A stretch of 57,156 nucleotides of DNA from Promethearchaeota archaeon (GCA_048940645.1 JBHLOI010000018.1:1-57156), one strand, 5' to 3'. Counted from the first letter of the stretch, positions 8,011-49,916 are shown. Notes: generated by a model not told the origin, from the sequence alone. Numbers and translations are program-made.

Positions 8011-9078
8011 TTGAACTTAGAAAGCATTAAAAAACTTCAAAAAGAACTATCTGATCTATTTGGTGTTTCTGGATTTGAAGATGAGGTAAGTAATTTTATC
8101 TTGAACATGATTGAAAATGAAAATTTAGTTGACAAAGCTTGGAAGGACCCTCTTGGAAATGTACTTGCCATGAAAGAAGGAAATGAAGGGAAAAATCGAA
8201 TTCTATTTGATGCTCACACTGATGAAATTGGATTCATGGTCTCTTACATCGAGAAATCTGGATTTTTAAGATTTGTTTTGGTTGGTGGATGGGATATAAG
8301 GATATTGCAAGGACAGGCAGTAATCTTAAAATCACAATCAGGAAAACTTTTACATGGAATAATTGGATCAAAGCCTCCCCACTTAACAACCCCAAGTGAG
8401 AGGAAAAAAATTCCTGATCCTACTAAATTGTATATTGATGTCGGTATGAGTTCAGACAAAGAAGTGATAAATAGCGGGATTGATGTTGGTTCTGTTGCTA
8501 CTTTATATGATCCTTTTGAAGAATTTCCTAATAATATGGTTCGTGGAAAAGCATTTGATGATCGCACTGGATGTAATGTACTTCTTCAGTTGATGAGGCA
8601 ATTAAAAGAAAATTCATCGATTAATGACACTATTCTATTTAATTTTGCTGTGCAAGAAGAATTTGGAAGGATTGGAGCCGTTACAGGAGCTTTTAAACTA
8701 AAACCAACTATGGCTATAGCAGTAGAAAACACTACTGCGGCAGATGTACCAGGTATAAAAGATTCGCAAATCCCAGTTTATATTGGTAAAGGTCCAGCGA
8801 TCACCGTAGCAGATAAATCCATTATATGTTCGCCTCATATAAATAAAAGACTCATAGAAAATGCAAAGTATGAAAAAATTTCTTATCAAATCAAAAAACC
8901 TATGTATGGTTTAACAGATGCAGGGAAAATTCAACTTACACGCGAAGGTGTACCTAGCTCAGTAGTATCTGTTCCATGTCGCTATATACATTCTCCAACA
9001 TCTTTACTCAAGTTAGAAGATATAGCTAATACAATAAGATTGCTAGTAACTTTTATAAGGAATCCTGCTAATCTTTAG
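8011..9078 (+). CDS. M42-family (TET-like) aminopeptidase
   Basis: DAHTDEIG, KAFDDRTGC, VQEEFG, RYIHSP. Confidence 0.95.
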   Translation: MNLESIKKLQKELSDLFGVSGFEDEVSNFILNMIENENLVDKAWKDPLGNVLAMKEGNEGKNRILFDAHTDEIGFMVSYIEKSGFLRFVLVGGWDIRILQGQAVILKSQSGKLLHGIIGSKPPHLTTPSERKKIPDPTKLYIDVGMSSDKEVINSGIDVGSVATLYDPFEEFPNNMVRGKAFDDRTGCNVLLQLMRQLKENSSINDTILFNFAVQEEFGRIGAVTGAFKLKPTMAIAVENTTAADVPGIKDSQIPVYIGKGPAITVADKSIICSPHINKRLIENAKYEKISYQIKKPMYGLTDAGKIQLTREGVPSSVVSVPCRYIHSPTSLLKLEDIANTIRLLVTFIRNPANL

Positions 9079-9120
9079 CTTTAAAAAAAAATTTAAAAAA
9101 AATATAGGAATATTAGCTAA

Positions 9121-9681
9121 TTAATCACCAATTGGAAGAATTTTTCTTCCATATGATTCATTTATAATTTCTGCTATTGCTAAATAAATTGCACTTGAAC
9201 CACACAAAATTCCTTCATATCCTGCTATGATTTTAATTAACGATATACCAGTAAAATCACCAATAGCTAGTAGAAAAAATAATATAGCTAAACTTAAAAA
9301 GACGACCTGTAGAGCCCTATTCCTTTTCAATGTTCCAAAAAACATAAATAAAGTAAATAAGCCCCACATCAGAAGGTAAGATCCTACAGCAAATGTCTCT
9401 GGAGGTACACTCCATAATCCTGTATTTGGTAAAATATTTAGAAAAACTAATGTCAACCAAAACAATCCATAGGATGTAAAAGCTGTTGTCCCGAACGTAT
9501 TTCCTTTCTTATATTCCATAATACCCGCAATTATTTGGGCAATTCCTCCATAAAATATTCCCATACTTAAAATCATAGTCCCTAAGGGAAATAAACCAGC
9601 ATTATGAAGATTAAGTAGGACAGTAGTCATACCAAATCCCATCAGACCAAGCGGTGCTGGATTTGCCAATTCATCATTCAT
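9121..9681 (-). CDS. satP: acetate/succinate transporter (GPR1/FUN34/YaaH family)
   Basis: [19 protein letters not shown] and [15 protein letters not shown] signatures. Confidence 0.95.
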
Positions 9682-9922
9682 TTTTCTTTTACTCGTCTAT
9701 TATCAATTTAATTAGATTCATGTACTTATTTTGATTTTAAAATTTTTTGAAAGATAAAAACCTTATATTAATAAAAAATTAGGACATCTTCAATTGATAA
9801 AAAAAACCTTGTTTTAGGTTATAAAGATAAAAGTATCAAATTTATAGATAAAAATCTTATAAATTATAGTAAATATATTAAATAAAATAGAGAGAGATCG
9901 GAAAATAATAAATAAAAAAAAA

Positions 9923-10297
9923 TTGATTATCATGTCCTCAGCTAAAGGTTTTTTATGGAGCCTAGTATTCCTTTTAACCGCAGCTATTTATAGCTCAATT
10001 CCTACTTATTTAATTGTAACCTATTGGCAATGGTTAAATTCATTCACAATGGACGGGAGACCTGTATATACAATTCCTTTATTTACTTTATTCTTATGGA
10101 TTATTTCTTTAGTTGTTACTTTAATTTATCTTGTTGCTATGATAAGAGCGATAGTTCAGAGGAAAAATGAGGATTTAGGGATACCTAAGGGTGTAAAAGG
10201 TTTTGGACTTGTCTCTTCAATTATAGTATTTGTATTTATGGTTTTATGGTACATTCTATTTAATGAGATTGCCTTTTTCTCTATGATTCCTCCTTAA
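9923..10297 (+). CDS. small 3-TM membrane protein
   Basis: Three hydrophobic helices; probable ATG at 9932. Confidence 0.75.
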   Translation: MIIMSSAKGFLWSLVFLLTAAIYSSIPTYLIVTYWQWLNSFTMDGRPVYTIPLFTLFLWIISLVVTLIYLVAMIRAIVQRKNEDLGIPKGVKGFGLVSSIIVFVFMVLWYILFNEIAFFSMIPP

Positions 10298-10353
10298 TAC
10301 AATTGGTTTAGATTATTTTAAGGAAAAAATAAAAATTTAATTATTTACTTTAA

Positions 10354-11778
10354 TTATTCAGAAACTTGTTTTAATTTATCTTCATGGATTTTTACCAGTT
10401 TTTCTTTGATTTCTTCATACTTTTCTTTTGTAATGGGGAATTTTCTTAAGGTTAATATCCCTAAAGCAAGAGCAACAGCAGGAAAAACACAAATTAAAAT
10501 TCTAATTCCTAAAAGTGTTAGATTAGTGACTGTTGCTGGATCATAAGTTGCCCATCCCACAGTAGGAAAAACAATAGCTAGTGATAAAGCTACTGCAACT
10601 GTAGAAAAACGAATTATTAAAGCATTTACTCCATAATATGCACCTTCGCGTCTTATTCCTGTCTCAATTTCATCATAGTCGATAATAGCACTCATTACAA
10701 CATCTCGTCCAAACATGATACCAGCAAAACCAAATCCAATTAAAATATATGTTATTATGGCTCCTATAATTTCCCAAATGAATAATGTAGGGATTAAAGT
10801 AATTATTAAAGTTGCTAACGCTGTCATATGGGCCTTTTTTGCACCTTTTTTAGCAAAGAAATTTCGCCATATAATCATAAATATTATTGCGGAGATAAAA
10901 ATTATAGCTAATAATAATTGTTGCATTAAAGCATCCTCTTCACCTATAACATATCCTAGGAAATATGGATTGATTATGGGGAACAATCCAAAAACAAACC
11001 ACTGTGCAAAATTTGTCAAAACATACCATTTAAAAGCTTTATTTTTAAATGTAAGTTTTACAGATTTAAAGAATGATGGTGCTTTTTCAGGATCCTTAGA
11101 GTATTCTTTTCTTTCCTTTAATCCAAATATAATAAAAATAGAGGCAAAAATAGCTGCTATAGCTGCCATAATAAGTGAAGTTCCAATAAATTGTTTCTGA
11201 ATATTTGATCTTATTAGGGGATTGGTTGTATAAGGTATTAATTCTTCAATAAAAAAGCCAGGTAATAAAGCAGCGAATAATAATCCTATGATGTTAAAAA
11301 TTTGAACAAAATTATTAGCTTTTGTTCTCTCACCTAAATCCTGATACATTTCTGGAAATAAGCTTGTTTGATTTAAAGAATATGCTGTATAGAAAGTATC
11401 AAAAAGATTTATTATAATTATAAAATAAAGGAATTGAATCACTGTTGAACCTGTAATAGGTGCTGTCCATAAAAGAATTATAATTATACAGGTTGGAATA
11501 ATTCCTCCAATTACGTAGGGTCTTCTTCTTCCCCATTTTGATGTTGATCGATCTGATAAAGCACCTAAAAGCGGATCATTTAACGCATTCCAAACAGACC
11601 ACAATACGTAGCCTAATGAAACTAAAAGTATATCACCTATTATTACCGTATAATAGAAGTTAAATATATAAAATGTAAACATTTGATATGACATTGTGTC
11701 TGCTATTCCAGCAAAACTATAAAAGATGGTTGTTTTTGTAGATATTTTTTCCCTTGAGCTAAATTTTTCTTCACTCAT
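10354..11778 (-). CDS. MFS transporter, glycoside-pentoside-hexuronide (GPH) family
   Basis: WNALNDPLLGALSDRSTSKWGRRRPY and IIDYDEIETGIRREGAYYG; 12 TM. Confidence 0.93.
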   Translation of the reverse strand: MSEEKFSSREKISTKTTIFYSFAGIADTMSYQMFTFYIFNFYYTVIIGDILLVSLGYVLWSVWNALNDPLLGALSDRSTSKWGRRRPYVIGGIIPTCIIIILLWTAPITGSTVIQFLYFIIIINLFDTFYTAYSLNQTSLFPEMYQDLGERTKANNFVQIFNIIGLLFAALLPGFFIEELIPYTTNPLIRSNIQKQFIGTSLIMAAIAAIFASIFIIFGLKERKEYSKDPEKAPSFFKSVKLTFKNKAFKWYVLTNFAQWFVFGLFPIINPYFLGYVIGEEDALMQQLLLAIIFISAIIFMIIWRNFFAKKGAKKAHMTALATLIITLIPTLFIWEIIGAIITYILIGFGFAGIMFGRDVVMSAIIDYDEIETGIRREGAYYGVNALIIRFSTVAVALSLAIVFPTVGWATYDPATVTNLTLLGIRILICVFPAVALALGILTLRKFPITKEKYEEIKEKLVKIHEDKLKQVSE

Positions 11779-11900
11779 TTTTACTCTTTGTTTTTAATTT
11801 AATTTAGTTAATTTATTTTTGATATTGACATTTTTATATTTTTATTTATTTTGAGAAGTAGTAGAACATAAAACAATATAAAACTTTTTTTAAGTTTTTT

Positions 11901-13076
11901 TTAGAAAGAAAGGGGATATTTTCCAAATTCTTTTGTTGCTTTAACCATCCAGCGTAAATTTGGGACTTTAATAGCCGGATGCATATTTGCGGCACTCACA
12001 ATAAAGCCTCCTCCTGGACCAGCTGTTTTAATAGCATATTTAACTGCATCATACACTTCCTGTTTGGTTCCATAAGTTAATACATGAGCAACATCTATAT
12101 TACCCAATAAGCATAATTTATCCCCTACTTTCTTTTTAACTAATGCTAAATCAACATTAGCAGTAGGTTCAAGACTGTGTAAGCCATCAAATCCACAACC
12201 AATTATAAAATCTAATAGGGGAGTAATCTGCCCGTCTGTATGAAGAACTATTTTTCCTCCTCGCTCATGAACAGCATCAGTTATTGTCTTGTATGCTGGT
12301 AAAAGTAATTCATTAAACTTTTTTGGGTTCATCATAGGACCTGTATGATAGGCTAAGTCTCCTGATTCAACGAAGACTTCTGCACCTACCTCCATATAGC
12401 TTTTATAGCATTCTGCGGTAAATTCAGCTATGATTTCATGAACTTCTTTAATAAATTTTGGATTTTTATGAATCATTCTAGAGTAATATGGCATACCCAT
12501 GCCTTGAGAGGCGCTTTCAAATACGCCTGCTAAATCATTTGTTACAATCACAAATATTTTATCCTTGTGTTTTTTATTTATTCGGCGATAAAATTTTTTC
12601 ACCATTTTAGTATATTTTTCTGTCATTGGGCCTTGAATGTTTTCTTTAGTTTCTTTCCATTTGTCAAGTGAATTCATAGTGCCATATAAATAATAGGGAT
12701 TGAAATTACCTTCATTATTTTTTGCTTCCCATACACGTCCAAATATGTCTTTCATAAGATCTCTTTTATCATCAGGAACCTCCACAAATTCTAGGGGGAT
12801 TATACCAACTTGCATACAATCAAGTCCAACGTTGATCGCAGCTTCAACACACCGAGAAAAAACAGAAGTTTCTACACTTTCAAGTAAATTACTCATTTCT
12901 TCTCTCCAATTCTCTGGATTTTCGCGTTTTATTTGTTCTAATGTATCAAAATCTGATATTTGAGGTTTCCCAAGAATATTATCAACATTATTCGCATCAA
13001 TATAGATCGTATGAGATGGTACTCGATCTGGTTCTTCTAAATTTAAAGTAGCAAGAACTCTTTCTCTACATTCCAT
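11901..13076 (-). CDS. uroporphyrinogen decarboxylase / MtaA-like family protein
   Basis: RERVLATLNLEEPDRVP, LHTDG, LCLLGNID, GPGGGFIVS. Confidence 0.9.
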   Translation of the reverse strand: MECRERVLATLNLEEPDRVPSHTIYIDANNVDNILGKPQISDFDTLEQIKRENPENWREEMSNLLESVETSVFSRCVEAAINVGLDCMQVGIIPLEFVEVPDDKRDLMKDIFGRVWEAKNNEGNFNPYYLYGTMNSLDKWKETKENIQGPMTEKYTKMVKKFYRRINKKHKDKIFVIVTNDLAGVFESASQGMGMPYYSRMIHKNPKFIKEVHEIIAEFTAECYKSYMEVGAEVFVESGDLAYHTGPMMNPKKFNELLLPAYKTITDAVHERGGKIVLHTDGQITPLLDFIIGCGFDGLHSLEPTANVDLALVKKKVGDKLCLLGNIDVAHVLTYGTKQEVYDAVKYAIKTAGPGGGFIVSAANMHPAIKVPNLRWMVKATKEFGKYPLSF

Positions 13077-40119: not shown

Positions 40120-41631
40120 TTGGTATTTCTCTTGAAAAACTACAATGTAATTCTAATTCATCCACCTAGAAGCGTACAGCCAAATTTTGGTAAAAACGCT
40201 AAATTCAGGCGTGGTCGATATATCTTTATTCCGATGGGTGTTTTTGCTATTGCTGATATTCTTGAAAGAGAGGGTTTTGGGGTTAAAATTATAAATTATC
40301 CTTTAGAACAATATCTAAACCATAATTGGATTATAACTAATTTTCTCAAAAATACTGATATTGATGTATGTGGAATAGATTTACATTGGATACATAACGC
40401 CTATGGCGCTATAGAAGTTGCCAGAATCATAAAAGAGATAAATCCTAATTCTAAAGTGATCTTTGGAGGTAATACTGCTTCATATTACCATCATCAAATA
40501 TTAAAATATTATAATGAAATTGATGGTGTAATTAGAGGAGAAGGTGAAATCCCCCTACTAAAATATGTTCAGAGTATTGTTAAAAATCATTCTTTAGATT
40601 CCGTTCCAAATTTAACTTATCGTGATTCTTCTAAACATATAAAAATCAATTCTCTATCGTATACTGCAAAAACATTAGATGATTTAAATTTTACAAATGT
40701 ATCACTCCTAGAAAATGCAAAATCTTATTTTGAATGTAGTAGAAAACTTATGGGCATATCTTTTAATCTTTCCATTGGAAGGGGTTGTCCATTTAATTGC
40801 CCATTTTGTGGAGGAGGTCAGAGAGCTCAACAAAAGTTCGCAGGACGTAATGAAGTGATTCTAAGAAGCCCTGAAAAAGTAATAGAAGATATTAACAAAA
40901 TAAAAGACAATTATAGAATTCAAAGTGTTTTTTTTGGACATGGCAGTTATCCTGCTAATTTAAAATATTGGGAAAATTTATTTGGGTTAATTAAAAAAGA
41001 GAAGCTTGATATAGGTGCAGACTTGGAAATATGGCGTTTACCATTTCCTAAAAAGATGTGGAAAATGTTTCATGACACTTTTCCTAGAAGATTTTCTTCA
41101 ATAAGCGTCTCTCCTCGAACTATGTCTGAAAAAGTTCATTCCAAAATAACTGAAAAATGTGATCCAACCTTTAAATTTTCAAGAGCTCAAATTAACGATT
41201 TAATAAGGAATGCGAATCTCTTTAGGAGGACATTGAGAATATGGTTAACGCTCGGTTTTCCGTTTCAAACCCGCCTTGATGTTTTGAAAGATTTTCTTTT
41301 TATGATGAAGTGTGCATTAAAATATGGAACGACTAAATCCAAACCGATTACAATCATGAATGAATTATATCACATTTTTCCTGGGTCACCTGCGCATGAA
41401 TCGCCAGAAGATTATGCAGTAAAATTAAAATACAAATCTTTTCCCGAGATTGCTGAAGTTTTTAAAAGATCTAAAATATCATACTTTTACAGTGTGATAA
41501 ATTATGACTCAAAAGCCTTTTCTGCTTCTTCAATACGGATAATAAATACACTTTCATTTTTAAGTACTGTAAACATGCTGTTAACTACTGGCTCAAAACA
41601 ACCTGAAGTGGAAGGCAGAAGAAATAAATAA
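40120..41631 (+). CDS. B12-binding domain radical SAM protein (Ta0216/TIGR04190-like)
   Basis: IPMGVFAIAD, GIDLHW, RGEGE, GRGCPFNCPFC. Confidence 0.88.
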   Translation: MVFLLKNYNVILIHPPRSVQPNFGKNAKFRRGRYIFIPMGVFAIADILEREGFGVKIINYPLEQYLNHNWIITNFLKNTDIDVCGIDLHWIHNAYGAIEVARIIKEINPNSKVIFGGNTASYYHHQILKYYNEIDGVIRGEGEIPLLKYVQSIVKNHSLDSVPNLTYRDSSKHIKINSLSYTAKTLDDLNFTNVSLLENAKSYFECSRKLMGISFNLSIGRGCPFNCPFCGGGQRAQQKFAGRNEVILRSPEKVIEDINKIKDNYRIQSVFFGHGSYPANLKYWENLFGLIKKEKLDIGADLEIWRLPFPKKMWKMFHDTFPRRFSSISVSPRTMSEKVHSKITEKCDPTFKFSRAQINDLIRNANLFRRTLRIWLTLGFPFQTRLDVLKDFLFMMKCALKYGTTKSKPITIMNELYHIFPGSPAHESPEDYAVKLKYKSFPEIAEVFKRSKISYFYSVINYDSKAFSASSIRIINTLSFLSTVNMLLTTGSKQPEVEGRRNK

Positions 41632-41750
41632 CACTTAATGCTTTTACTTATTTGTAAAACCTCATTGCATTTAATTAAATTTTTAATTGATGGTTGTGTT
41701 TAGTTTTACTATTAAAGAAAATTTATTCGATATTGACTAATTGAAATTAT

Positions 41751-42542
41751 ATGAATATGCATTATTGTAAAAAAAAACCTAAAAATATAAGATCATTTAG
41801 CATATTATTCTTCATTTTTTCATGTTTACCAATTGCTTTCATTTTTATTCTTTTAAGATTTATCCCAAAAGCACTACCTTTAATGGAGGCTTATATTAAT
41901 TCTGGTTCTTCTTTTTTCGTTCCTATTATACCTAATATCAATTTATTACCTGAAAAAGGTCAATTAATTGGATTAACTCTCGGTCAATTGATTGATATTA
42001 TCATAATGGTTAATTTACTTGGTTTTATTGAAAGTAGTATATACCATTTTTTCAAAAAGAAATTCTCTATTGAACAATTTTCAGAAATTAGTTTAACCTT
42101 AAATTGGCTCACAACAGAGGAAGAACTTTTTTTATCATCTCAAGAACAAGATGATTTGTTTGGATTAGAGGTTAATTTACTTTTTTTAAATAATTGTTTT
42201 AATAAAGATTTTGTAAAAACTTTCAATATTTATCAGAAAGACCTACTATTCTATTACTTGCATGCTCTTGAACAAGATAGAAAATTTAAGAATGATAAGA
42301 GATTCTATACGAAATCCAAATTTATATCTTATTATTATAACAAAAACCGTGTTTCTTCTTTATTTACTCTTTTTAAATTAAAAAATCCTTATCTTAAGAA
42401 TATAAATCCCCTCCTTATTTGTAATTTTCCAACTATTTTTAATGAAAGTATAAGAGGAGAGGAATTATTAATTATGCATTTAAAATTCAAAATTAAATCT
42501 ATGTTAAATCCTAAGTTAATTATTTCAAGAAAAAGTGAATAA
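41751..42542 (+). CDS. hypothetical membrane protein, very AT-rich
   Basis: 263-codon ORF with 2 hydrophobic segments; no family recognised. Confidence 0.45.
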   Translation: MNMHYCKKKPKNIRSFSILFFIFSCLPIAFIFILLRFIPKALPLMEAYINSGSSFFVPIIPNINLLPEKGQLIGLTLGQLIDIIIMVNLLGFIESSIYHFFKKKFSIEQFSEISLTLNWLTTEEELFLSSQEQDDLFGLEVNLLFLNNCFNKDFVKTFNIYQKDLLFYYLHALEQDRKFKNDKRFYTKSKFISYYYNKNRVSSLFTLFKLKNPYLKNINPLLICNFPTIFNESIRGEELLIMHLKFKIKSMLNPKLIISRKSE

Positions 42543-42543
42543 T

Positions 42544-43902
42544 ATGGAATGGAATAAAGATATAAAAGAACTATATGGATTGATTACTGAACAAGTTCCT
42601 GAAGCATTTCGTGCATCAGTCAAACCTATGTTGCTTGAAGCTGCTGAAAGAGCAGCACGCCTTAGGAATTCTGGATTTGTAAGTAGGGATGATTTGTTAT
42701 CCGCACTATTTGAGATAACACCTGAAGCATTTAAACCAACAGTAGTTGCGGATTTGAAAAAAATAGGAATAGAATCAGATAGATATGTAAAATTATCAGA
42801 AATTAGGAAAGAATATGCTCGTACTTGGGATGAAATTGGTGGAGCATTTTTACCTGGTGTTTATCATTTTACTATGTATCTAACTGATCGATGCAACCAA
42901 AAATGTATTCATTGTGCTGCTGAGGTTATGGAAAATCGTCCAGAATTATCAACAGATCAATGGATTCGGATTATTGAAAATATTGAACAAACTTTAAGAA
43001 ATCAGGGTCGCAGAGGTTGTTATATTTGGTTTGGTGGAGAACCTACCCTTCGTAAAGATCTTAAAGATTTGATTAAATATTGTGGTGAAAAAGGCTATTA
43101 CCAAGCAATTTCTACAAATGGTATGCTATTCGATGAAGAACTTGCGAGAATATGCGCTGATGCCAAGATGAGTCACGTCTTTATTAGCTATGATAGTGTT
43201 TATCCACAAAGAGCTGCAAAGATAAGGGGTGTATCAAATGCATATGAGGCGGCTGAAAATGCTATTAAATTAGCTTTAAAGTATGGTCATTTTGTTATAT
43301 GTACGGAAACGGTTCAAAAAGAGAATCTTGATGAAATTGAAAAAATAAAAGAGAGATTAGAATCTATGGGAGTTATACCATATTTTAGGGCAATTATAAA
43401 ACAGAGAACTGCTGAAATAAACTGGGATGAAATTGGGTTAGATCATGATGAATATATAAAGTTTTATGAATTCAAATACAAGCAAGTCGTTCATGCTATT
43501 AGAAAAGGAGAAGCTTCATCTCTCAATAAATTCTATACTTATGACATGGTACCTTTCATGGAATGTCCTCTTAATGATGAGGAGCGAACTGCATTAGAGT
43601 GGGGAGTGGGTTGTCAAGCATGTCGCTCAGTTTCGGGTATTGATGTTAATGGAGATTTCTTCCCCTGTGATTATCCATCTACATTGATTCTGGGTAATGT
43701 ATTAGAGCAACCCTTTGAGGAGATTATGGAATCGGAAATGTTTAAATCAATCAGGGACAGAAAAATAAAAGGTAAGTGTGCTACTTGTCATCATCTAGAA
43801 TTATGCGGGGGAGGTTGTAGGGTTCATGCTGAAAATGAAACAGGTGACTTTTTGGCTCCATTCCCTTTCTGCTGGCATGATAATAATCATGAACATGAAT
43901 GA
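42544..43902 (+). CDS. radical SAM/SPASM protein with N-terminal DUF2621/PCP_red-like helical module
   Basis: CNQKCIHC, FGGEP, GCQAC...FFPCD and KCATCHHLELCGGGCR SPASM cysteines. Confidence 0.9.
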   Translation: MEWNKDIKELYGLITEQVPEAFRASVKPMLLEAAERAARLRNSGFVSRDDLLSALFEITPEAFKPTVVADLKKIGIESDRYVKLSEIRKEYARTWDEIGGAFLPGVYHFTMYLTDRCNQKCIHCAAEVMENRPELSTDQWIRIIENIEQTLRNQGRRGCYIWFGGEPTLRKDLKDLIKYCGEKGYYQAISTNGMLFDEELARICADAKMSHVFISYDSVYPQRAAKIRGVSNAYEAAENAIKLALKYGHFVICTETVQKENLDEIEKIKERLESMGVIPYFRAIIKQRTAEINWDEIGLDHDEYIKFYEFKYKQVVHAIRKGEASSLNKFYTYDMVPFMECPLNDEERTALEWGVGCQACRSVSGIDVNGDFFPCDYPSTLILGNVLEQPFEEIMESEMFKSIRDRKIKGKCATCHHLELCGGGCRVHAENETGDFLAPFPFCWHDNNHEHE

Positions 43903-43923
43903 TGTATTTAAAAGTGAAGCTTT

Positions 43924-45327
43924 ATGGAGTGGGAAAAAGAGACTCAAATTCTATTCGATAGAATAGTAGAACAAATGCCTCAGGGATTTAGGCCTTCTGT
44001 TGAACCGTTAATAGTAGAAGCGGCAGAAAAAAGGTGCCTTGAACGAAATGGCGCTTACATTAATGATGCGGATGTAATCATGGGGATTTTTGATATTATC
44101 CCTGAAGCATTTAAATCTGTAATGGTTGAAGATCTGACAACGTTAGGAATTGATGTTGAGCGATATATTGAACTTAAAGATATAAAAGATCGACTTAAAG
44201 TCTCTTGGGAAAAATTAGAAAGAGGATTTCATCCCGGAAATATTCATTTTGCTATGTATCTTACGGATAAATGCAACCAAAAATGTATACACTGTGCTGC
44301 TGACGATCTCGTGCCACGTACAGAACTAACTACAGAACAATGGTGCCAGATAATCGAAAATGTTGAAACTGGATTGAGAAAACAAGGAAGACATGCATGT
44401 TTCGTGTGGTTTGGGGGAGAACCTACTTTGCGTAAAGATATAGGTGAAATCATGAAATTTTGCAAAGAAAAAGATTACATTCATGCTCTTATTACCAACG
44501 GTGTGAGATTTGACGAACCGTTCGTTAAAATGTGTAAGGAAAACAATATTAGTCATATATTCGTAAGTTTTGACAGTGCAGACCCAAAGAAAAACGATCA
44601 AATTCGTGGGTTCCCGAATTCCTTAGATTATGCTAAAAAAGCTATAGATCTCTGTTTAAAAAGTGGAATTTTTGTGTGTTCATCAATCACTGTCATGAAA
44701 CAAAATATTGATGAGTTGGAAGAACTTAAAGAATTATCAGAAAAATGGGGTTCACAACCATATTTTAGATGTGTGGTCAAACAAAATCGAGCTGCTGAGT
44801 TTTGGGATGAAATAGGCCTTAATACGGAAGAATACAAAAAAATGTATGAATTTAAATACAAACATGCCGTTGAAACGATAAAAAAAGGTGAGGCAGGGAT
44901 ATTACCTGCTTATGAAATTTATGATATGGTACCCTTTATGGAACAACCTAAAGACGATAAGGAAATAGCGGCAATCGAATGGGGTGTAGGGTGTTTAGCT
45001 TGTAGGACGATGATGGGTATTGGCATAGATGGTACAATATACCCTGCAGGGTATCCCACTACATTGACGCTTGGAAACGCATTAAAGAATAATTTTGAAA
45101 ATGTGCTTAATTCTCAACTATACAAAGATATTCGCGATAGAAAAAAAATTAAAGGGAAATGCGCGACATGCCATCATCTTAAGTATTGTGGTGGTGGATG
45201 TCGTGTGACTGCAGAATATATCACAGGGGATTTTTTTGGTTCATTTCCTTTTTGCTGGCATGAAAATGATCATGAACATCAAGTTGATTTTGTTCAAAAG
45301 AAAGAGATAGAATTTTTCGAACAATAA
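43924..45327 (+). CDS. radical SAM/SPASM protein (paralogue) with the same N-terminal module
   Basis: CNQKCIHC, FGGEP, KCATCHHLKYCGGGCR; collinear with the preceding gene. Confidence 0.9.
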   Translation: MEWEKETQILFDRIVEQMPQGFRPSVEPLIVEAAEKRCLERNGAYINDADVIMGIFDIIPEAFKSVMVEDLTTLGIDVERYIELKDIKDRLKVSWEKLERGFHPGNIHFAMYLTDKCNQKCIHCAADDLVPRTELTTEQWCQIIENVETGLRKQGRHACFVWFGGEPTLRKDIGEIMKFCKEKDYIHALITNGVRFDEPFVKMCKENNISHIFVSFDSADPKKNDQIRGFPNSLDYAKKAIDLCLKSGIFVCSSITVMKQNIDELEELKELSEKWGSQPYFRCVVKQNRAAEFWDEIGLNTEEYKKMYEFKYKHAVETIKKGEAGILPAYEIYDMVPFMEQPKDDKEIAAIEWGVGCLACRTMMGIGIDGTIYPAGYPTTLTLGNALKNNFENVLNSQLYKDIRDRKKIKGKCATCHHLKYCGGGCRVTAEYITGDFFGSFPFCWHENDHEHQVDFVQKKEIEFFEQ

Positions 45328-45349
45328 TAGGTTTCTCTTAAGAATAAAC

Positions 45350-46774
45350 GTGAGAATAATGCGAGTGTTAATAATTTCTGGGAGTAGGGAGATAGTACAT
45401 GTTATGGTTCCGCCATTAGGAGAAGCATATTTGGGTTCCTATTTAATTAATCAAGGACATGATGTAAAGTTGCTTGATTTAACCTTAAGTAATGATTATA
45501 AACAAGATGTTTCAAAAGCAATATATGATTTCAATCCACAAGTAATTGGCATTTCAATTCGTAATATTGATTCAACTACATACCCTGGTAATCTTTTCTT
45601 TTATCTACCAGTTAAAAATATTATTCAATATATTAAACGACTTGTAGAACCAGATATTCCAATAATTTTAGGTGGGGCTGGTTTTTCTATTTTTTCTGAA
45701 GAAATTTTGAGGGATTTAAATCACGATTTGGGTGTTGTTGGCGATGGAGAATACGTATTTGCTGAGATACTAAAAAGAATTAGAAATAATGAAGACCCCA
45801 GAAATATTGAAAGGGGTATTTGTTTTTTGGACAATAAAGGCGAATACCATCAAAATCCACCATGGCGAGTTGAAAATTTAGATGAACTTCCTTTTCCAAT
45901 ACGGGATATTATGGATAATGATTCGTATCTTATAGATCCATTGAATAAATCTGGTCCAATTTGGGGAAATATTCAAACTAAAAGGGGCTGCCCTATGAAT
46001 TGCATTTATTGTAGCTATAGATTTATTGAAGGAACCAATGTACGTTATAGATCTCCAGAAAATGTTACGGAAGAGCTCGATTTAATAGTAAATAATTATG
46101 GAATTAAAAATGTGTTTATTGTAGATAGTATTGTCAATTTAAATTATGATCATTTAAAAGAAACATGCCAAGAGATTATTAATCATAAAATACATGTCAA
46201 TTGGGGAGCAAATTACGTTCCAAGTGAGAAATTTCTTGATTTAATGCCACTGATGAAAGAAAGTGGTGCTATACATTTCGCAACTGGTATTGAGTCATTA
46301 TCAGAGGAAATGCTAAAAAATATGAATAAAAATCGATCCCCAGATGAGGCGATCCTTACTTCTAAAAAGTGTATTGATCTTGAAATTGAACAATTAATCC
46401 ATATTATTGTTGGAGGTCCAGGGGAAACACTTGAAACAGTTCGAGCTTCATTAGACCAGTTAGAAACTATAGAGAGTTATAGAGGAAATTTATGGCAAGG
46501 AGATGGAGATGTAATCGTTTTTATAGGTATGAGAATTTATCCTCACACTCCTCTTCAGCGAATTGCAGAAGAAGAAGGAACTATTTTGAAGGGAGAAAAG
46601 TTACTTAAACCCAAATTTTATATCTCTCCAAAAATCAAAGAAGTAGATCTTTATCAAATAGTAAGAGAGTATGGTGAAGCAAATCCAAGATGGATGATGC
46701 CTGGACTTGGGTTCAACAATCCAGACGGGTTTGCTGAATTAAGTAATATTCAATTTGCAAAATATCAAAATTAA
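45350..46774 (+). CDS. B12-binding radical SAM protein, similar to the lipid-biosynthesis TIGR04072 type
   Basis: PPLG, GISIRNID, GGAGFS, TKRGCPMNCIYC, GGPGET, GMRIYPHT. Confidence 0.88.
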   Translation: MRIMRVLIISGSREIVHVMVPPLGEAYLGSYLINQGHDVKLLDLTLSNDYKQDVSKAIYDFNPQVIGISIRNIDSTTYPGNLFFYLPVKNIIQYIKRLVEPDIPIILGGAGFSIFSEEILRDLNHDLGVVGDGEYVFAEILKRIRNNEDPRNIERGICFLDNKGEYHQNPPWRVENLDELPFPIRDIMDNDSYLIDPLNKSGPIWGNIQTKRGCPMNCIYCSYRFIEGTNVRYRSPENVTEELDLIVNNYGIKNVFIVDSIVNLNYDHLKETCQEIINHKIHVNWGANYVPSEKFLDLMPLMKESGAIHFATGIESLSEEMLKNMNKNRSPDEAILTSKKCIDLEIEQLIHIIVGGPGETLETVRASLDQLETIESYRGNLWQGDGDVIVFIGMRIYPHTPLQRIAEEEGTILKGEKLLKPKFYISPKIKEVDLYQIVREYGEANPRWMMPGLGFNNPDGFAELSNIQFAKYQN

Positions 46775-46793
46775 AAAAAAAGGTATTAATAAG

Positions 46794-47966
46794 ATGGATT
46801 GGCAACAAGAAGTTAAAAAGCTTTATGAAGATATGGTCTTAAGAATTCCAGAAATGGTGAGACCTGTAATTAAGCCAGAACTTTTTAAAGCAGCTGAGCA
46901 AAAATGTGAGGAGCGAAATGGAAAACGGGTGGCTGAGATAGATCTTGTTGTGGCAATGTTTGAAGTCACACCACCAGCTTTTCAACCAACGATGATTGAG
47001 GATTTAAAAGCTTTGGGGGTTAATTATGACTTATATATGCCTAAAGTAAATTCTGATTTTAAACTTGAAAACGATCTTAATCAATTAGTTAATGATATTT
47101 TTAAGCTTGGTGAGATTACAGGTGTAAAATGTAATAGAGAAGCTATTTGGAAGACATTAAATTCTTACAAGGATTTTTTTTCCGGATCTTCTATTTCGAT
47201 TAGAACAACTACCAAACCCATTGAAGAGAGGGATATTTCTGCAAGATATGTTGAAATGATGATCCCCCATAATCCAGATCCTTATAAAACTGCAATAAGA
47301 AAAGGATTAATTAAAAAGAACGGGCATCCAATTCATAAAATGATATTAGAAGCATTTGATACTTTTAATATTATGGGTTATGGTATTGATTTGGATTCTA
47401 GATTTGGATTATCTAAGATATGGCCTTTTATAGTGCCAGGGCCTATAGATCCGCTTTTTTCAATGAATTATGTCCCTAAAAGTATGAAAAAATACGAGGA
47501 CTACTTTAAAAAACATGGATTGACAATATTTAGTCTTTTTGCTTTTGATTTCTTTAAGAATTCGACAAATATTTATTTCATGCTTAAAGATCCCTCTAAA
47601 AACAAAATTGCAGATTGTAAAGCACTTGTAAAAGATTTAGGTTTTACTTTAGCATCTGAAGAGATTATGGAAAAATGTTGCGATGCAGTACATCTCAATT
47701 ATACTTTTAGCTGGGATTCAGAAAAGATCGAGCGTATCTGCTTTGGTATGACTTGTCATGATAAAAAGGAAGTTCCAGTGCACTTCCATCCGTTAATAGA
47801 AGAATTCGTTGAAAATTCACTGTTCCAAAGTGAAATTCATAAGTTTATTTACGGAGTAACTTTCACACCAAAAGGGTTTTACTATAAGATTGAAAATGAT
47901 TATAATGGAACTATGGTAGATTTTCTATTAATGGGTTCTAGAGCAGGAATTGATTCCTATAAGTGA
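46794..47966 (+). CDS. ABBA-family aromatic prenyltransferase (NphB/Orf2/CloQ-like) with N-terminal helical module
   Basis: DPYKTAIRKGLIKKNGHPI, YGID...GLSKIW, FKKHGL, NIYF, WDSEKIERICF and IYGVTFTPKGFYYKI align by eye with NphB segments. Confidence 0.85.
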   Translation: MDWQQEVKKLYEDMVLRIPEMVRPVIKPELFKAAEQKCEERNGKRVAEIDLVVAMFEVTPPAFQPTMIEDLKALGVNYDLYMPKVNSDFKLENDLNQLVNDIFKLGEITGVKCNREAIWKTLNSYKDFFSGSSISIRTTTKPIEERDISARYVEMMIPHNPDPYKTAIRKGLIKKNGHPIHKMILEAFDTFNIMGYGIDLDSRFGLSKIWPFIVPGPIDPLFSMNYVPKSMKKYEDYFKKHGLTIFSLFAFDFFKNSTNIYFMLKDPSKNKIADCKALVKDLGFTLASEEIMEKCCDAVHLNYTFSWDSEKIERICFGMTCHDKKEVPVHFHPLIEEFVENSLFQSEIHKFIYGVTFTPKGFYYKIENDYNGTMVDFLLMGSRAGIDSYK

Positions 47967-48045
47967 TAAAGAAATCTTATCTTATGGTAAAACTATGTAA
48001 TCAAGTAATTATTAAAAATGAGAAAATAGAATGGAGGTAAAAAAA

Positions 48046-48432
48046 ATGAATACAAAAGAAGAATGGGCAGCGTATCTTACGCGTTTTATGAAAGCCTATA
48101 ATGAGTTACCAGATTTGAAACCGATGTTAGAGCCAATAGCACCATTGGTTTTTCAATATATAATAACTGATGACCTTGAGATGAGTTATTGGCAATTAAT
48201 CGAAAAGGATCGAATGGATTGGGGAATGGGTGAATACTCAGGACCTGATGCTCCGAAAATCATCCATAAAACGGATTTTGAAACTATCAAAAAAGTAAAT
48301 TCAGGGGAGTCCGATCCTATTAAAGCTACTATGGAGGGTACTTATGTTGTAGAAGGTGACGTTTCTAAACTTATGGCTTGTGCACCTTTATTACCACTGA
48401 ACGCAAAAGCTCACGCTGAAGCAGTAAAATGA
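48046..48432 (+). CDS. SCP2 sterol/lipid-carrier domain protein
   Basis: TDFETIKKVNSGESDPIKATMEGTYVVEGDVSKLM is the SCP2 C-terminal pattern; GGAGG Shine-Dalgarno before ATG 48046. Confidence 0.85.
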   Translation: MNTKEEWAAYLTRFMKAYNELPDLKPMLEPIAPLVFQYIITDDLEMSYWQLIEKDRMDWGMGEYSGPDAPKIIHKTDFETIKKVNSGESDPIKATMEGTYVVEGDVSKLMACAPLLPLNAKAHAEAVK

Positions 48433-48500
48433 TGAGTAGATGATAAAAATTAAATTAATTTGTTTTTTTTATTTTAAAGTTATTAATAAATAATAAAAAG

Positions 48501-49916
48501 GTGAAAAAAGTTCAGTTTTGTGTAGCTACAAATTGGGATTTCGAGCTTATAGATAAATTAACAGAATACCCTGTAACTGATGTATATGGTGTTGCAGATC
48601 ATACTATCGTAGGAGGAGGCCGCCCATCTTTTTTACTAACAAAAATTTCTGAAGAAAAAATAGCAGAATATATTAAGAGAATTCATGAGAAAAAAATGGA
48701 ATTCTCTTATTTATTAAATGCTCCATGTATGAACAATATGGAATATGATACACATTACCATAAAGAACTGCTTAAATATCTTCAATGGATTAGTGATATA
48801 GGAACTGATAACGTGATAGTAACCAATCCATTTTTAATACAGCTAATCAATAAACAATTTCCAAAACTAAAAATTCGAGTTTCGACCATTGCACACGTCA
48901 ATAGCGTGAACCGCGCAAAATTTTATGAAATGATGGGAGCAAATGAAATAACTCCAGATGTAATGATTAACCGAGATTTTAAAACTTTAGAAAAAATAAA
49001 GAAAGCAGTAAAATGTAAAATCGTTTTACTTTTAACTGATGGTTGTTTATATCAATGCCCCTTTAGATATTATCATTATAATATCTTAGGACATGCATCC
49101 CAATCTCATCAACAATTTGAGCGTAATTATATTGATACATGTATCTTAAATTGTAGTGTTATAAAATTTTCAAATCCAACCGAAGTACTTAAAGCAAGGT
49201 GGATTCGTCCAGAAGATTTATCTCATTATGAAGCTATAGGGATCAATAATTTTAAAATCGCTGGTCGGCGGATGTCAACAGAATGGATTATTAGAGCAGT
49301 AAAAGCATTCTCTTCACAAAAATATGATGGAAATCTAATTGATATTATTCAAGGGTTCTCAATGTCATTTGGAGGTCTAGAACAAAAAGATCCTAATCTA
49401 AAATTAACTAAAACTCTTGGGAAAGAGTTTAAGTCAAAATTGTATATAGACAATACCAAATTAGATGGCTTTATAGATTTTTTTAAAAAACAAGATTGCA
49501 TAGCAATGTGTAATGAATGTAACTATTGTGAAAAATGGGCAAAAAAGGCTGTGATACTAGAAAAAGAGGAATCTACTAGATATGTAGAATCTTTAAAGAA
49601 CTATATTGATGATATTGTATCCAGTCGTGAATTTGGAGTCACATCAACTAAACCTAAAGAAAAGGAAAAAATAGGTTTAATATGGGATTCTGAAACTGAG
49701 ATCCTTTTTAATAAATTAATAGAGTTAACACCTCCTCAATTTCAACCAATAGCACGGGTTGCAATTTCATCTCTCGCAGAGGAAAAAGCCAAAAAAAGAT
49801 CTTCACAACAAGTAGAACACGTGGATATGATCGAAGCTTTCTTAGAAGGAACTCCAGGACCTTTTCAAGCTGATATGAGGGAAGGACTTAAAAAGTATGG
49901 TCTAATAGATGAATAA
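48501..49916 (+). CDS. peptidase U32-family (Fe-S hydroxylase-like) protein with C-terminal helical module
   Basis: YLLNAPC, RVSTIAHVNS, INRDF, GCLYQCP...C...C, WIRPEDL, FKIAGR; C-terminal WDSETE...TPGPFQ module. Confidence 0.87.
   Translation: MKKVQFCVATNWDFELIDKLTEYPVTDVYGVADHTIVGGGRPSFLLTKISEEKIAEYIKRIHEKKMEFSYLLNAPCMNNMEYDTHYHKELLKYLQWISDIGTDNVIVTNPFLIQLINKQFPKLKIRVSTIAHVNSVNRAKFYEMMGANEITPDVMINRDFKTLEKIKKAVKCKIVLLLTDGCLYQCPFRYYHYNILGHASQSHQQFERNYIDTCILNCSVIKFSNPTEVLKARWIRPEDLSHYEAIGINNFKIAGRRMSTEWIIRAVKAFSSQKYDGNLIDIIQGFSMSFGGLEQKDPNLKLTKTLGKEFKSKLYIDNTKLDGFIDFFKKQDCIAMCNECNYCEKWAKKAVILEKEESTRYVESLKNYIDDIVSSREFGVTSTKPKEKEKIGLIWDSETEILFNKLIELTPPQFQPIARVAISSLAEEKAKKRSSQQVEHVDMIEAFLEGTPGPFQADMREGLKKYGLIDE

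Follow-up and report, generated by a model that had tools for sequence, protein, structure and literature searches.

A module of about 80 amino acids recurs in four of the eight genes of one operon in the genome of a Promethearchaeota archaeon. The operon (40120-49916, all genes co-directional) lies in a window of 57,156 nucleotides (GCA_048940645.1 JBHLOI010000018.1:1-57156), the whole stretch of DNA that was analysed, and six of its genes fall within 42544-49916. The genes that carry the module encode two radical SAM/SPASM enzymes (SPASM #1 and SPASM #2), a prenyltransferase and a U32-family protein. Those that do not encode two B12-binding radical SAM enzymes, an SCP2 lipid carrier and a membrane protein. 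The four recurring modules are real and far beyond chance. As for what they do, the reading favoured here is tentative and held at somewhat less than even strength: the module may be an accessory domain that forms a working pair with the enzyme to which it belongs, handing or gating a greasy intermediate between SCP2 and the active site.

Four copies of one module

An earlier reading of the DNA sequence (the original prediction) placed the module at the N-termini of both SPASM enzymes and of the prenyltransferase and at the C-terminus of the U32 protein. All four copies were found there (Table 1). They align over about 80 residues each with 0 internal gaps and 11 invariant columns (W3, L10, P19, A34, E35, R41, D50, P60, F63, L71, and G75). 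A failure of the copies to align significantly had been named as one outcome that would count against them. Instead, the alignment is ungapped and pairwise BLASTP of the modules gives 3e-25 for SPASM #1 versus the prenyltransferase and 1e-13 for the prenyltransferase versus U32; the SPASM #1 and U32 modules alone give a weak match (0.002). The proposed sequence motif holds too, except in the U32 copy, where the element predicted as F-[ED]-x-[TI]-P reads F-L-E-G-T-P and is shifted by one residue. A profile built from the four copies, as had been suggested, matched exactly these four in the whole source assembly (3.83 Mb, 89.6% complete), with E-values of 1e-33 to 1e-43. The next match has an E-value of 0.68, and no copy was found outside the cluster in that assembly. 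Pfam confirms the host domains (Radical_SAM with SPASM twice, PTase_Orf2, and Peptidase_U32) and that of SCP2. The analysis supports the view that the module is portable and non-catalytic and that its hosts have three unrelated folds.

Table 1. Positions of the four module copies and of the eight operon genes within the window.
Feature	Position	Strand	Basis and remarks
Module copy 1	42544-42789	+	residues 1-82 of radical SAM/SPASM #1; DUF2621 16.9 bits, E 0.0065
Module copy 2	43924-44169	+	residues 1-82 of radical SAM/SPASM #2; DUF2621 23.2 bits, E 7.4e-5
Module copy 3	46794-47039	+	residues 1-82 of the PTase_Orf2 prenyltransferase
Module copy 4	49671-49913	+	residues 391-471, the C-terminus of the U32 protein; DUF2621 22 bits, E 1.7e-4
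B12-binding radical SAM enzyme, TIGR04190/Ta0216-type	40120-41631	+	Pfam B12-binding and Radical_SAM; no module; first operon gene
Orphan membrane protein, 263 amino acids	41751-42542	+	hydropathy: hydrophobic segments at about residues 12-46 and 71-101; no module
Radical SAM/SPASM #1	42544-43902	+	Pfam Radical_SAM 77.5 bits, SPASM 42 bits
Radical SAM/SPASM #2	43924-45327	+	Pfam Radical_SAM 83.4 bits, SPASM 30.3 bits
B12-binding radical SAM enzyme	45350-46774	+	Pfam; no module
Soluble ABBA aromatic prenyltransferase (PTase_Orf2)	46794-47966	+	PF11468 165 bits
SCP2 lipid-carrier protein, free-standing	48031-48432	+	PF02036 23.8 bits
Divergent U32-family protein	48501-49916	+	PF01136 53.7 bits

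The same fusions occur in other Asgard archaea. A word-indexed search returned 163 longer proteins, 120 of which were listed. Among those listed, every match with a Pfam annotation belongs to the SPASM, prenyltransferase or U32 family, and all named sources are Asgard metagenome-assembled genomes (Promethearchaeota/Lokiarchaeota, Thor-, Hod-, Heimdall-, and Odinarchaeota). The module is always N-terminal on the SPASM enzymes and prenyltransferases and always C-terminal on the U32 proteins, two of which carry two modules in tandem. Modules from the same host class are 69-71% identical, those from different classes 26-45%. The U32 module is the most divergent (26-29% identity to the other three), and few surface-type residues (E35, R41, and D50) are invariant across classes. 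Because the modules group by host enzyme, the fusions are, on these comparisons, older than the divergence of the Asgard lineages concerned. The high identity within classes and the low identity between them also point to co-evolution of each module with its own enzyme. Orthologous modules (72-77% identity) and catalytic domains (67-80%) are about equally conserved, and in the prenyltransferase, 41 of 48 comparisons between orthologues show higher conservation for the module than for the catalytic barrel.

Within the phylum the cluster is distributed patchily. Modules were found in 11 of 151 genomes, a count that includes the source genome and one weak partial match; the remaining nine genomes belong to the source's family. 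In the source's genus, five of the 12 other genomes have them. A module-bearing cluster contains four to five modules (the genome with two clusters has nine in all), and every one of them lies within a cluster. What if the modules bind each other, or all bind a single hub, for which SCP2, a B12-radical-SAM enzyme and the membrane protein are candidates? They would then be docking tags, as the original prediction had it, that assemble the tagged enzymes into a metabolon in the way that UbiJ and UbiK structure the Ubi complex, and their number within the cluster and absence outside it would fit. This is a possibility to be taken seriously, although on balance we think it less likely than not. 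One difficulty is that paralogous modules are so dissimilar and share so few surface-type invariants, whereas each orthologous series keeps about 70% identity.

A helical bundle of the DUF2621 kind

An AlphaFold2 model of copy 1, based on a 34-sequence alignment, consists of four compactly packed helices (residues 5-16, 20-40, 48-58, and 61-73) and has a mean predicted local distance difference test score of 90.3 and a predicted template-modelling score (pTM) of 0.77. The two halves of the module are homologous, each being made up of a helix, the residues P-x-A-F and a second helix (hhalign of half versus half: probability 81%, E 1.2e-5). We are confident that the module, as modelled, is a four-helix bundle derived from an internal two-hairpin duplication. 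The copies have at most one Cys or one His each, with no invariant Cys or His column. They are acidic (isoelectric point 4.3-5.1) and hydrophilic (grand average of hydropathy -0.03 to -0.29), and they have no hydrophobic segment. A catalytic, metal- or cluster-binding, or membrane-inserting role therefore appears unlikely from the sequences.

The original prediction likened the module to DUF2621 and to PCP_red. The first likeness stands. The scores of the copies against PF11084 (DUF2621), 14.4-23.2 bits with E-values of 7e-5 to 0.07, do not reach the Pfam gathering cut-off of 27.7. Still, they are the four best PF11084 matches in the genome, at profile positions of about 52-138, and relatives retrieved with the module profile exceed the cut-off at 29-32 bits (P0213 32.2, P0265 30.9, and P0165 30.3). 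The AlphaFold2 model matches Atlas models of stand-alone bacterial DUF2621 proteins with template-modelling scores of 0.85-0.92 and a root-mean-square deviation (rmsd) of 1.2-1.4 Å over 81-82 residues. In addition, the language-model neighbours of the module are DUF2621 clusters (score 0.90-0.92). Structurally, then, the modelled module belongs to DUF2621, a family to which no function has been assigned and with which it has the four-helix fold of about 80 residues in common. Two differences are that the copies cover only the C-terminal two thirds of the DUF2621 profile, and that here the module is multiplied over four enzymes of one operon. A membrane-anchored form of DUF2621 was also considered and dropped: the small relatives examined have no hydrophobic segment ahead of the module, and several of them are fragments of a U32 C-terminus.

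The likeness to PCP_red did not hold beyond a remote relationship. PF08369 (PCP_red) has no match in the source genome at E<=10, and distant members of the module family score 21-28 bits against it, with a cut-off of 32.5. Structural comparison with NMR structures of PCP_red gives Z scores of 6.3 (2L09) and 5.4 (2KRU) at an rmsd of 2.9-3.3 Å over 57-60 residues, which is in the range of unrelated helical bundles. A Foldseek search of the PDB with the module found nothing at E<=0.001; 2L09 and 2KRU were the sole compact matches (rmsd about 3 Å, E 0.15-0.48). In one Atlas cluster, 54% of the members carry DUF2621 and 24% carry PCP_red. PCP_red spans about 45 residues, roughly one hairpin of the module. 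There is a parallel in that PCP_red, at the C-terminus of BchB/ChlB of dark-operative protochlorophyllide reductase, is likewise a small helical domain on an Fe-S enzyme with a hydrophobic substrate, and the C-terminal helix of BchB covers the substrate cavity (PMC4071322).

Two other look-alikes came up. Among PDB structures, the AAA+ lid of BchI matches best (Z 8.5, 71 residues), but common helical arrangements give values of this size as well. When PDB sequences were searched with two module profiles and with two single relatives, no match was significant; the best of the weak ones were to AAA+ lids and histone folds, and BchB chains did not appear. The module profile also matches TPR_10/TPR_12 arrays, with E-values down to 7e-19, in P0145, P0160 and about 14 other long proteins with TIR or trypsin-like N-termini. 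These matches are due to a hairpin motif common to both: the TPR_10/TPR_12 repeat unit of STAND NTPases, in which the motif reads L-Y-R-A-L-A-x-x-R-P-D-A-F-R-P-D-L-A, can be aligned with either half of the module (helix, P-[ED]-A-F-[RKQ]-P, helix). However, TPR proteins form a solenoid of 34-residue repeats, whereas the module has just two hairpins (period about 41 residues) that close into a bundle, and no ATPase is attached to it; the resemblance does not go beyond the motif. No TPR family is among the Pfam matches of the four copies at E<=10. Multi-stretch matches on proteins of 850-1600 amino acids were regarded as cross-matches and not counted in the family, those that were checked (P0145 and P0160) being STAND NTPase TPR_10/TPR_12 arrays.

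Hosts, free-standing modules and SCP2

Where else does the module occur? The profile was run exhaustively against 1.84 billion cluster representatives and matched 269 proteins at E<=0.001, of which the 150 listed were classified. This survey of fusions, which the original prediction had called for, shows many more architectures than those of the operon. About 50 of the 150 are the three Asgard-type fusions or their fragments, some of them bacterial, and in one (P0136) the prenyltransferase module is C-terminal. Approximately half are 55-170 amino acids long and have no other domain, some being gene fragments. Further hosts are a class I methyltransferase (P0227), a PNPOx-like protein (P0237), HpaB (P0239), another radical SAM enzyme (P0273) and a LuxC-module-radical SAM/SPASM protein (P0196). 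In P0238, two modules are followed by a thioredoxin-like 2Fe-2S ferredoxin. The Atlas adds VOC/glyoxalase-module fusions and many bacterial U32-DUF2621 proteins. Nearly all of the other hosts (methyltransferase, PNPOx-like, HpaB, VOC/glyoxalase, and LuxC-radical SAM) act on hydrophobic or aromatic small molecules, and they sit in type II polyketide synthase (PKS)-like or aromatic-tailoring clusters. With at least ten unrelated enzyme families, a lipid carrier and a ferredoxin among its partners, the module is a widely reused accessory part.

Perhaps the module recruits a redox partner, that is, a ferredoxin, flavodoxin or reductase. Most hosts and neighbours are redox proteins (radical SAM/SPASM and B12-radical SAM enzymes, U32 Fe-S proteins, PNPOx-like proteins, BchB/BchZ, and HpaB, which is a two-component flavin monooxygenase), and the fusion with ferredoxin exists. 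However, the prenyltransferase, the SAM methyltransferase and SCP2 are tagged without being redox proteins, the prenyltransferase module is among the most constrained, and the module has no conserved Cys or His. Docking to an electron donor, which the original prediction had offered, leaves the modules on these three kinds of protein unexplained, and it is an improbable account of the family.

SCP2 is a recurrent partner. P0159 and P0218 are SCP2-module fusions, and the bacterial protein P0152 has the order U32-module-(three SCP2-type domains)-module. Within the genus of the source, the genome G113 has a gene for a U32-module-SCP2 protein of 683 amino acids (L023 9548-11599). Its SCP2 part is 79% identical to the free SCP2 of the source, and its gene adjoins a 77%-identical orthologue of the source's U32. 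The cluster in question (G113:C27:160500-175500, 8392-13036) also encodes a module-less U32-like protein (383 amino acids, 24% identity) and contains no free SCP2. From its gene content, the source cluster looks like a reduced version of the G113 form from which SCP2 has been split off. Because such a fusion exists within the genus, there is Rosetta-stone evidence that the module-bearing U32 protein and SCP2 would act in physical proximity. A functional tie to SCP2, the carrier named in the original prediction, is thus supported by the U32-module-SCP2 and SCP2-module fusions.

A separate observation concerns the carrier itself. P0364, an SCP2 protein 66% identical to the Asgard one, is annotated as coming from a bacterial metagenome-assembled genome, Candidatus Deferrimicrobium. 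The module-bearing prenyltransferase P0136 and the U32-SCP2 protein P0152 come from bacterial metagenome-assembled genomes as well. Together the three hint that parts of the system have passed between Asgard archaea and bacteria living anaerobically.

The fusions also lend weight to the docking tag. Elsewhere the carriers themselves are tagged, as in the SCP2-module proteins and in the ferredoxin with its two modules. Some U32 proteins have tandem modules, and the hairpin motif resembles TPR_10/TPR_12, which are protein-binding repeats. SCP2 is 65-87% identical across Asgard lineages, as would befit a protein with many partners. There is a precedent in Proteobacteria, where the SCP2 protein UbiJ binds intermediates and structures the multi-enzyme Ubi complex (PMC6747719). 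A docking tag best accounts for the ferredoxin and SCP2 fusions together with the multiplicity of modules in one operon, and it remains a strong rival.

The free-standing modules tell against its simplest version. Seven neighbourhoods of free modules were inspected. Where the module gene comes directly after a B12-radical-SAM gene, as in the three cases that follow, its product has 83-104 amino acids. In a Heimdall genome (L021), an 83-residue module gene directly follows a B12-radical-SAM gene, a 67% orthologue of 40120-41631 at a locus separate from the cluster. A bacterial locus (L024) has the same order with overlapping stop and start, and in L026 the B12-radical-SAM and module genes form an isolated pair with no other pathway gene near. 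Elsewhere the module gene has B12-radical-SAM genes on both sides (L010), directly follows HpaB (L025), lies between PNP_UDP_1 and ApbA in a type II PKS-like cluster (L012) or follows the gene for a CCG/Fer4 protein (L022). HpaB and the module are separate in L025 and fused in P0239. Since fused and split forms are equivalent, contact between module and host is indicated, and we infer from the gene order that a split module must bind the enzyme beside it. In addition, the bacterial clusters L011, L012, and L014 have one module each. These single-module clusters imply that tag-to-tag docking cannot be the general mechanism, and the isolated pair of L026 likewise does not suit assembly of several tagged enzymes. 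The portability on unrelated folds from which docking was first argued is upheld, but pure docking of tag to tag is not, given the single-module clusters, the isolated pair and the low identity between classes.

These observations lead back to the accessory domain that works pairwise with its enzyme. Each module would have a surface specific to its class and pair by it with the enzyme that it serves. As a gate or hand-off adaptor, it would let the enzyme receive the hydrophobic intermediate from SCP2 or give it back, and it is probably not mere glue between tagged enzymes. The link to SCP2 is drawn from the fusions. The hand-off is suggested by analogy, with the covering helix of BchB, UbiJ and the RiPP recognition element (RRE; see below) as supporting precedents.

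Several observations speak against hand-off. P0238, with its two modules and a ferredoxin, is easier to explain if modules recruit proteins to a complex than if they gate a substrate. In the source genome, neither of the operon's two B12-radical-SAM enzymes has a module, fused or free. The weakness of the PCP_red link, which had no PF08369 match and only Z scores within helical-bundle noise, counts here as well. On the same side stands the prediction for the tandem modules of one U32 protein folded as a single chain: two separate beads joined by a disordered linker (pTM 0.49, four-row alignment), a result that is uninformative on contact with the enzyme. The same unpacked beads, with the same caveat of a shallow alignment, also fail to favour docking of modules to each other. 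A complex prediction for SCP2 (27-row alignment) and the module (34-row alignment) scored 0.01 against a mark of 0.32, a value that speaks neither for nor against contact.

A comparable arrangement is found in the biosynthesis of ribosomally synthesised and post-translationally modified peptides (RiPPs). There, one small non-catalytic domain, the RRE, occurs on several unrelated enzymes of a cluster, typically N-terminal on a radical SAM/SPASM enzyme, or free beside the enzyme. The logic is the same as that of the module: a small domain, fused or free, serves unrelated enzymes. The structures differ. The RRE (PqqD-like), which recognises a leader peptide, has a winged-helix fold that includes a three-stranded beta-sheet, whereas the module is all-helical, with only two isolated bridge residues, and its cluster has an SCP2 carrier and no obvious precursor peptide. 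No PqqD-type Pfam family matches the four modules at E<=10. The module would belong to a known kind, the portable adaptor domain, and what is new is the lipid context in place of a peptide or polyketide one. A bolder extension is that DUF2621 modules are a general recognition system for small-molecule pathways, a counterpart of the RRE for lipids. On this model, unrelated enzymes would each have one module, attached or as a partner, that recognises SCP2 as the common non-covalent carrier or its bound intermediate, and the anaerobic Asgard pathway to a prenylated aromatic lipid would be a carrier-mediated assembly line. This is a speculative idea and we give it a low probability.

The operon and its presumed product

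The untagged genes give some idea of the pathway. Orthologues of the first gene, 40120-41631 (58-71% identity), adjoin the cluster or a module-bearing U32 in all five related genomes checked; its best NCBIfam model is TIGR04190, at 238 bits and under the cut-off. For the other B12-binding enzyme, 45350-46774, the nearest is TIGR04072, "lipid biosynthesis B12-binding/radical SAM" (272.6 bits versus a cut-off of 360). The prenyltransferase has orthologues of 390 amino acids across Asgard lineages. SCP2 is the sole copy in the source genome. Two starts differ from those of the longest open reading frames (42535/42544 and 46755/46794), SPASM #1 and the prenyltransferase beginning at the ATG of the module as their orthologues do. 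The SCP2 protein probably starts at M6 (48046, not 48031), because most orthologues have 128 amino acids.

The U32 protein has the cysteines C182-x3-C186 and C214-x3-C218 and a linker rich in K, E, S and T ahead of the module. About 50 residues before the module there is an additional motif, C-x3-C-x2-C-x2-C followed by "EKWAKKA" (residues 333-343; 49497-49529), which is kept in the congeneric orthologue and may be the site of a second Fe-S cluster. A similar C-x2-C-x2-C "EWA" motif heads several of the small stand-alone hits, some of which are U32 C-terminal fragments. Three canonical U32 genes elsewhere in the source genome have no module.

U32 and SCP2 proteins are found together in one known system. 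UbiT, UbiU, and UbiV, which hydroxylate ubiquinone precursors independently of O2, are SCP2 and U32 Fe-S proteins that act on a prenylated aromatic, and here the SCP2 and U32 genes are adjacent. However, the operon U32 is very divergent (49-54 bits) and its cysteines are spaced C-x3-C-x27-C-x3-C instead of C-x6-C-x15-C-x3/4-C as in UbiU/UbiV. There is one U32 gene in the operon (three in the congeneric cluster) versus the UbiU/UbiV pair, and the Ubi proteins have not been described with a shared appended domain. The partner enzymes (ABBA prenyltransferase, SPASM, and B12-radical SAM) are also unlike those of the Ubi pathway.

A tetrapyrrole was considered as the shared substrate. The idea came from the PCP_red link and from the nearest models, AhbD/AhbC/NirJ (for SPASM #1) and BchE, whose NCBIfam scores are far under the cut-offs. 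It is unlikely, as searches of the genome, which is 89.6% complete, turned up neither ALAD nor porphobilinogen deaminase nor a TP_methylase gene. The operon nevertheless encodes two B12-dependent radical SAM enzymes, and this implies corrinoid uptake. A side observation is that the TP_methylase family, from which no gene was found, includes diphthine synthase; at this completeness, the absence is unproven.

The membrane protein 41751-42542 has no family in Pfam, NCBIfam or the Atlas. It is present in nine of 25 family genomes, eight of which are among the nine module-bearing ones, and it lies directly 5' of SPASM #1 in eight clusters of seven genomes, including both clusters of the two-cluster genome. 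Its counterpart in a Heimdall cluster (40% identity over 142 amino acids) is two genes before SPASM #1. It is the operon's only membrane protein and a candidate for anchoring or export. Its sequence changes fast (29-36% identity in most genomes of the genus), which does not sit well with a role as the hub for modules that keep about 70%. Could the module itself bring soluble enzymes to a membrane or lipid surface that holds the prenylated substrate? The substrate is probably hydrophobic, judging from SCP2, the prenyltransferase and the lipid-type B12-radical-SAM enzyme, and the operon does include a membrane protein. However, the modules are acidic, hydrophilic and compact, without a hydrophobic segment; free-standing modules would have no cargo to target; and class-specific conservation is not expected of generic membrane binding. 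Membrane targeting is accordingly the least credible of the explanations considered.

Taken at face value, the operon appears to tailor a hydrophobic, prenylated and probably aromatic compound without oxygen. In Asgard archaea most of its soluble enzymes carry the module. It is conserved, oxygen-independent and so far undescribed: a literature search found no published work on the function of DUF2621 or PCP_red or on this Asgard cluster. The pairs of a B12-radical-SAM gene and a free module gene offer a minimal system for study. If the partner of the module were found, it would become clear how a greasy substrate is shared among radical enzymes and a prenyltransferase that are all soluble, and DUF2621 would gain a function. 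There would also be a pull-down bait and an operon marker with which to identify the prenylated compound of these archaea, the closest to eukaryotes.

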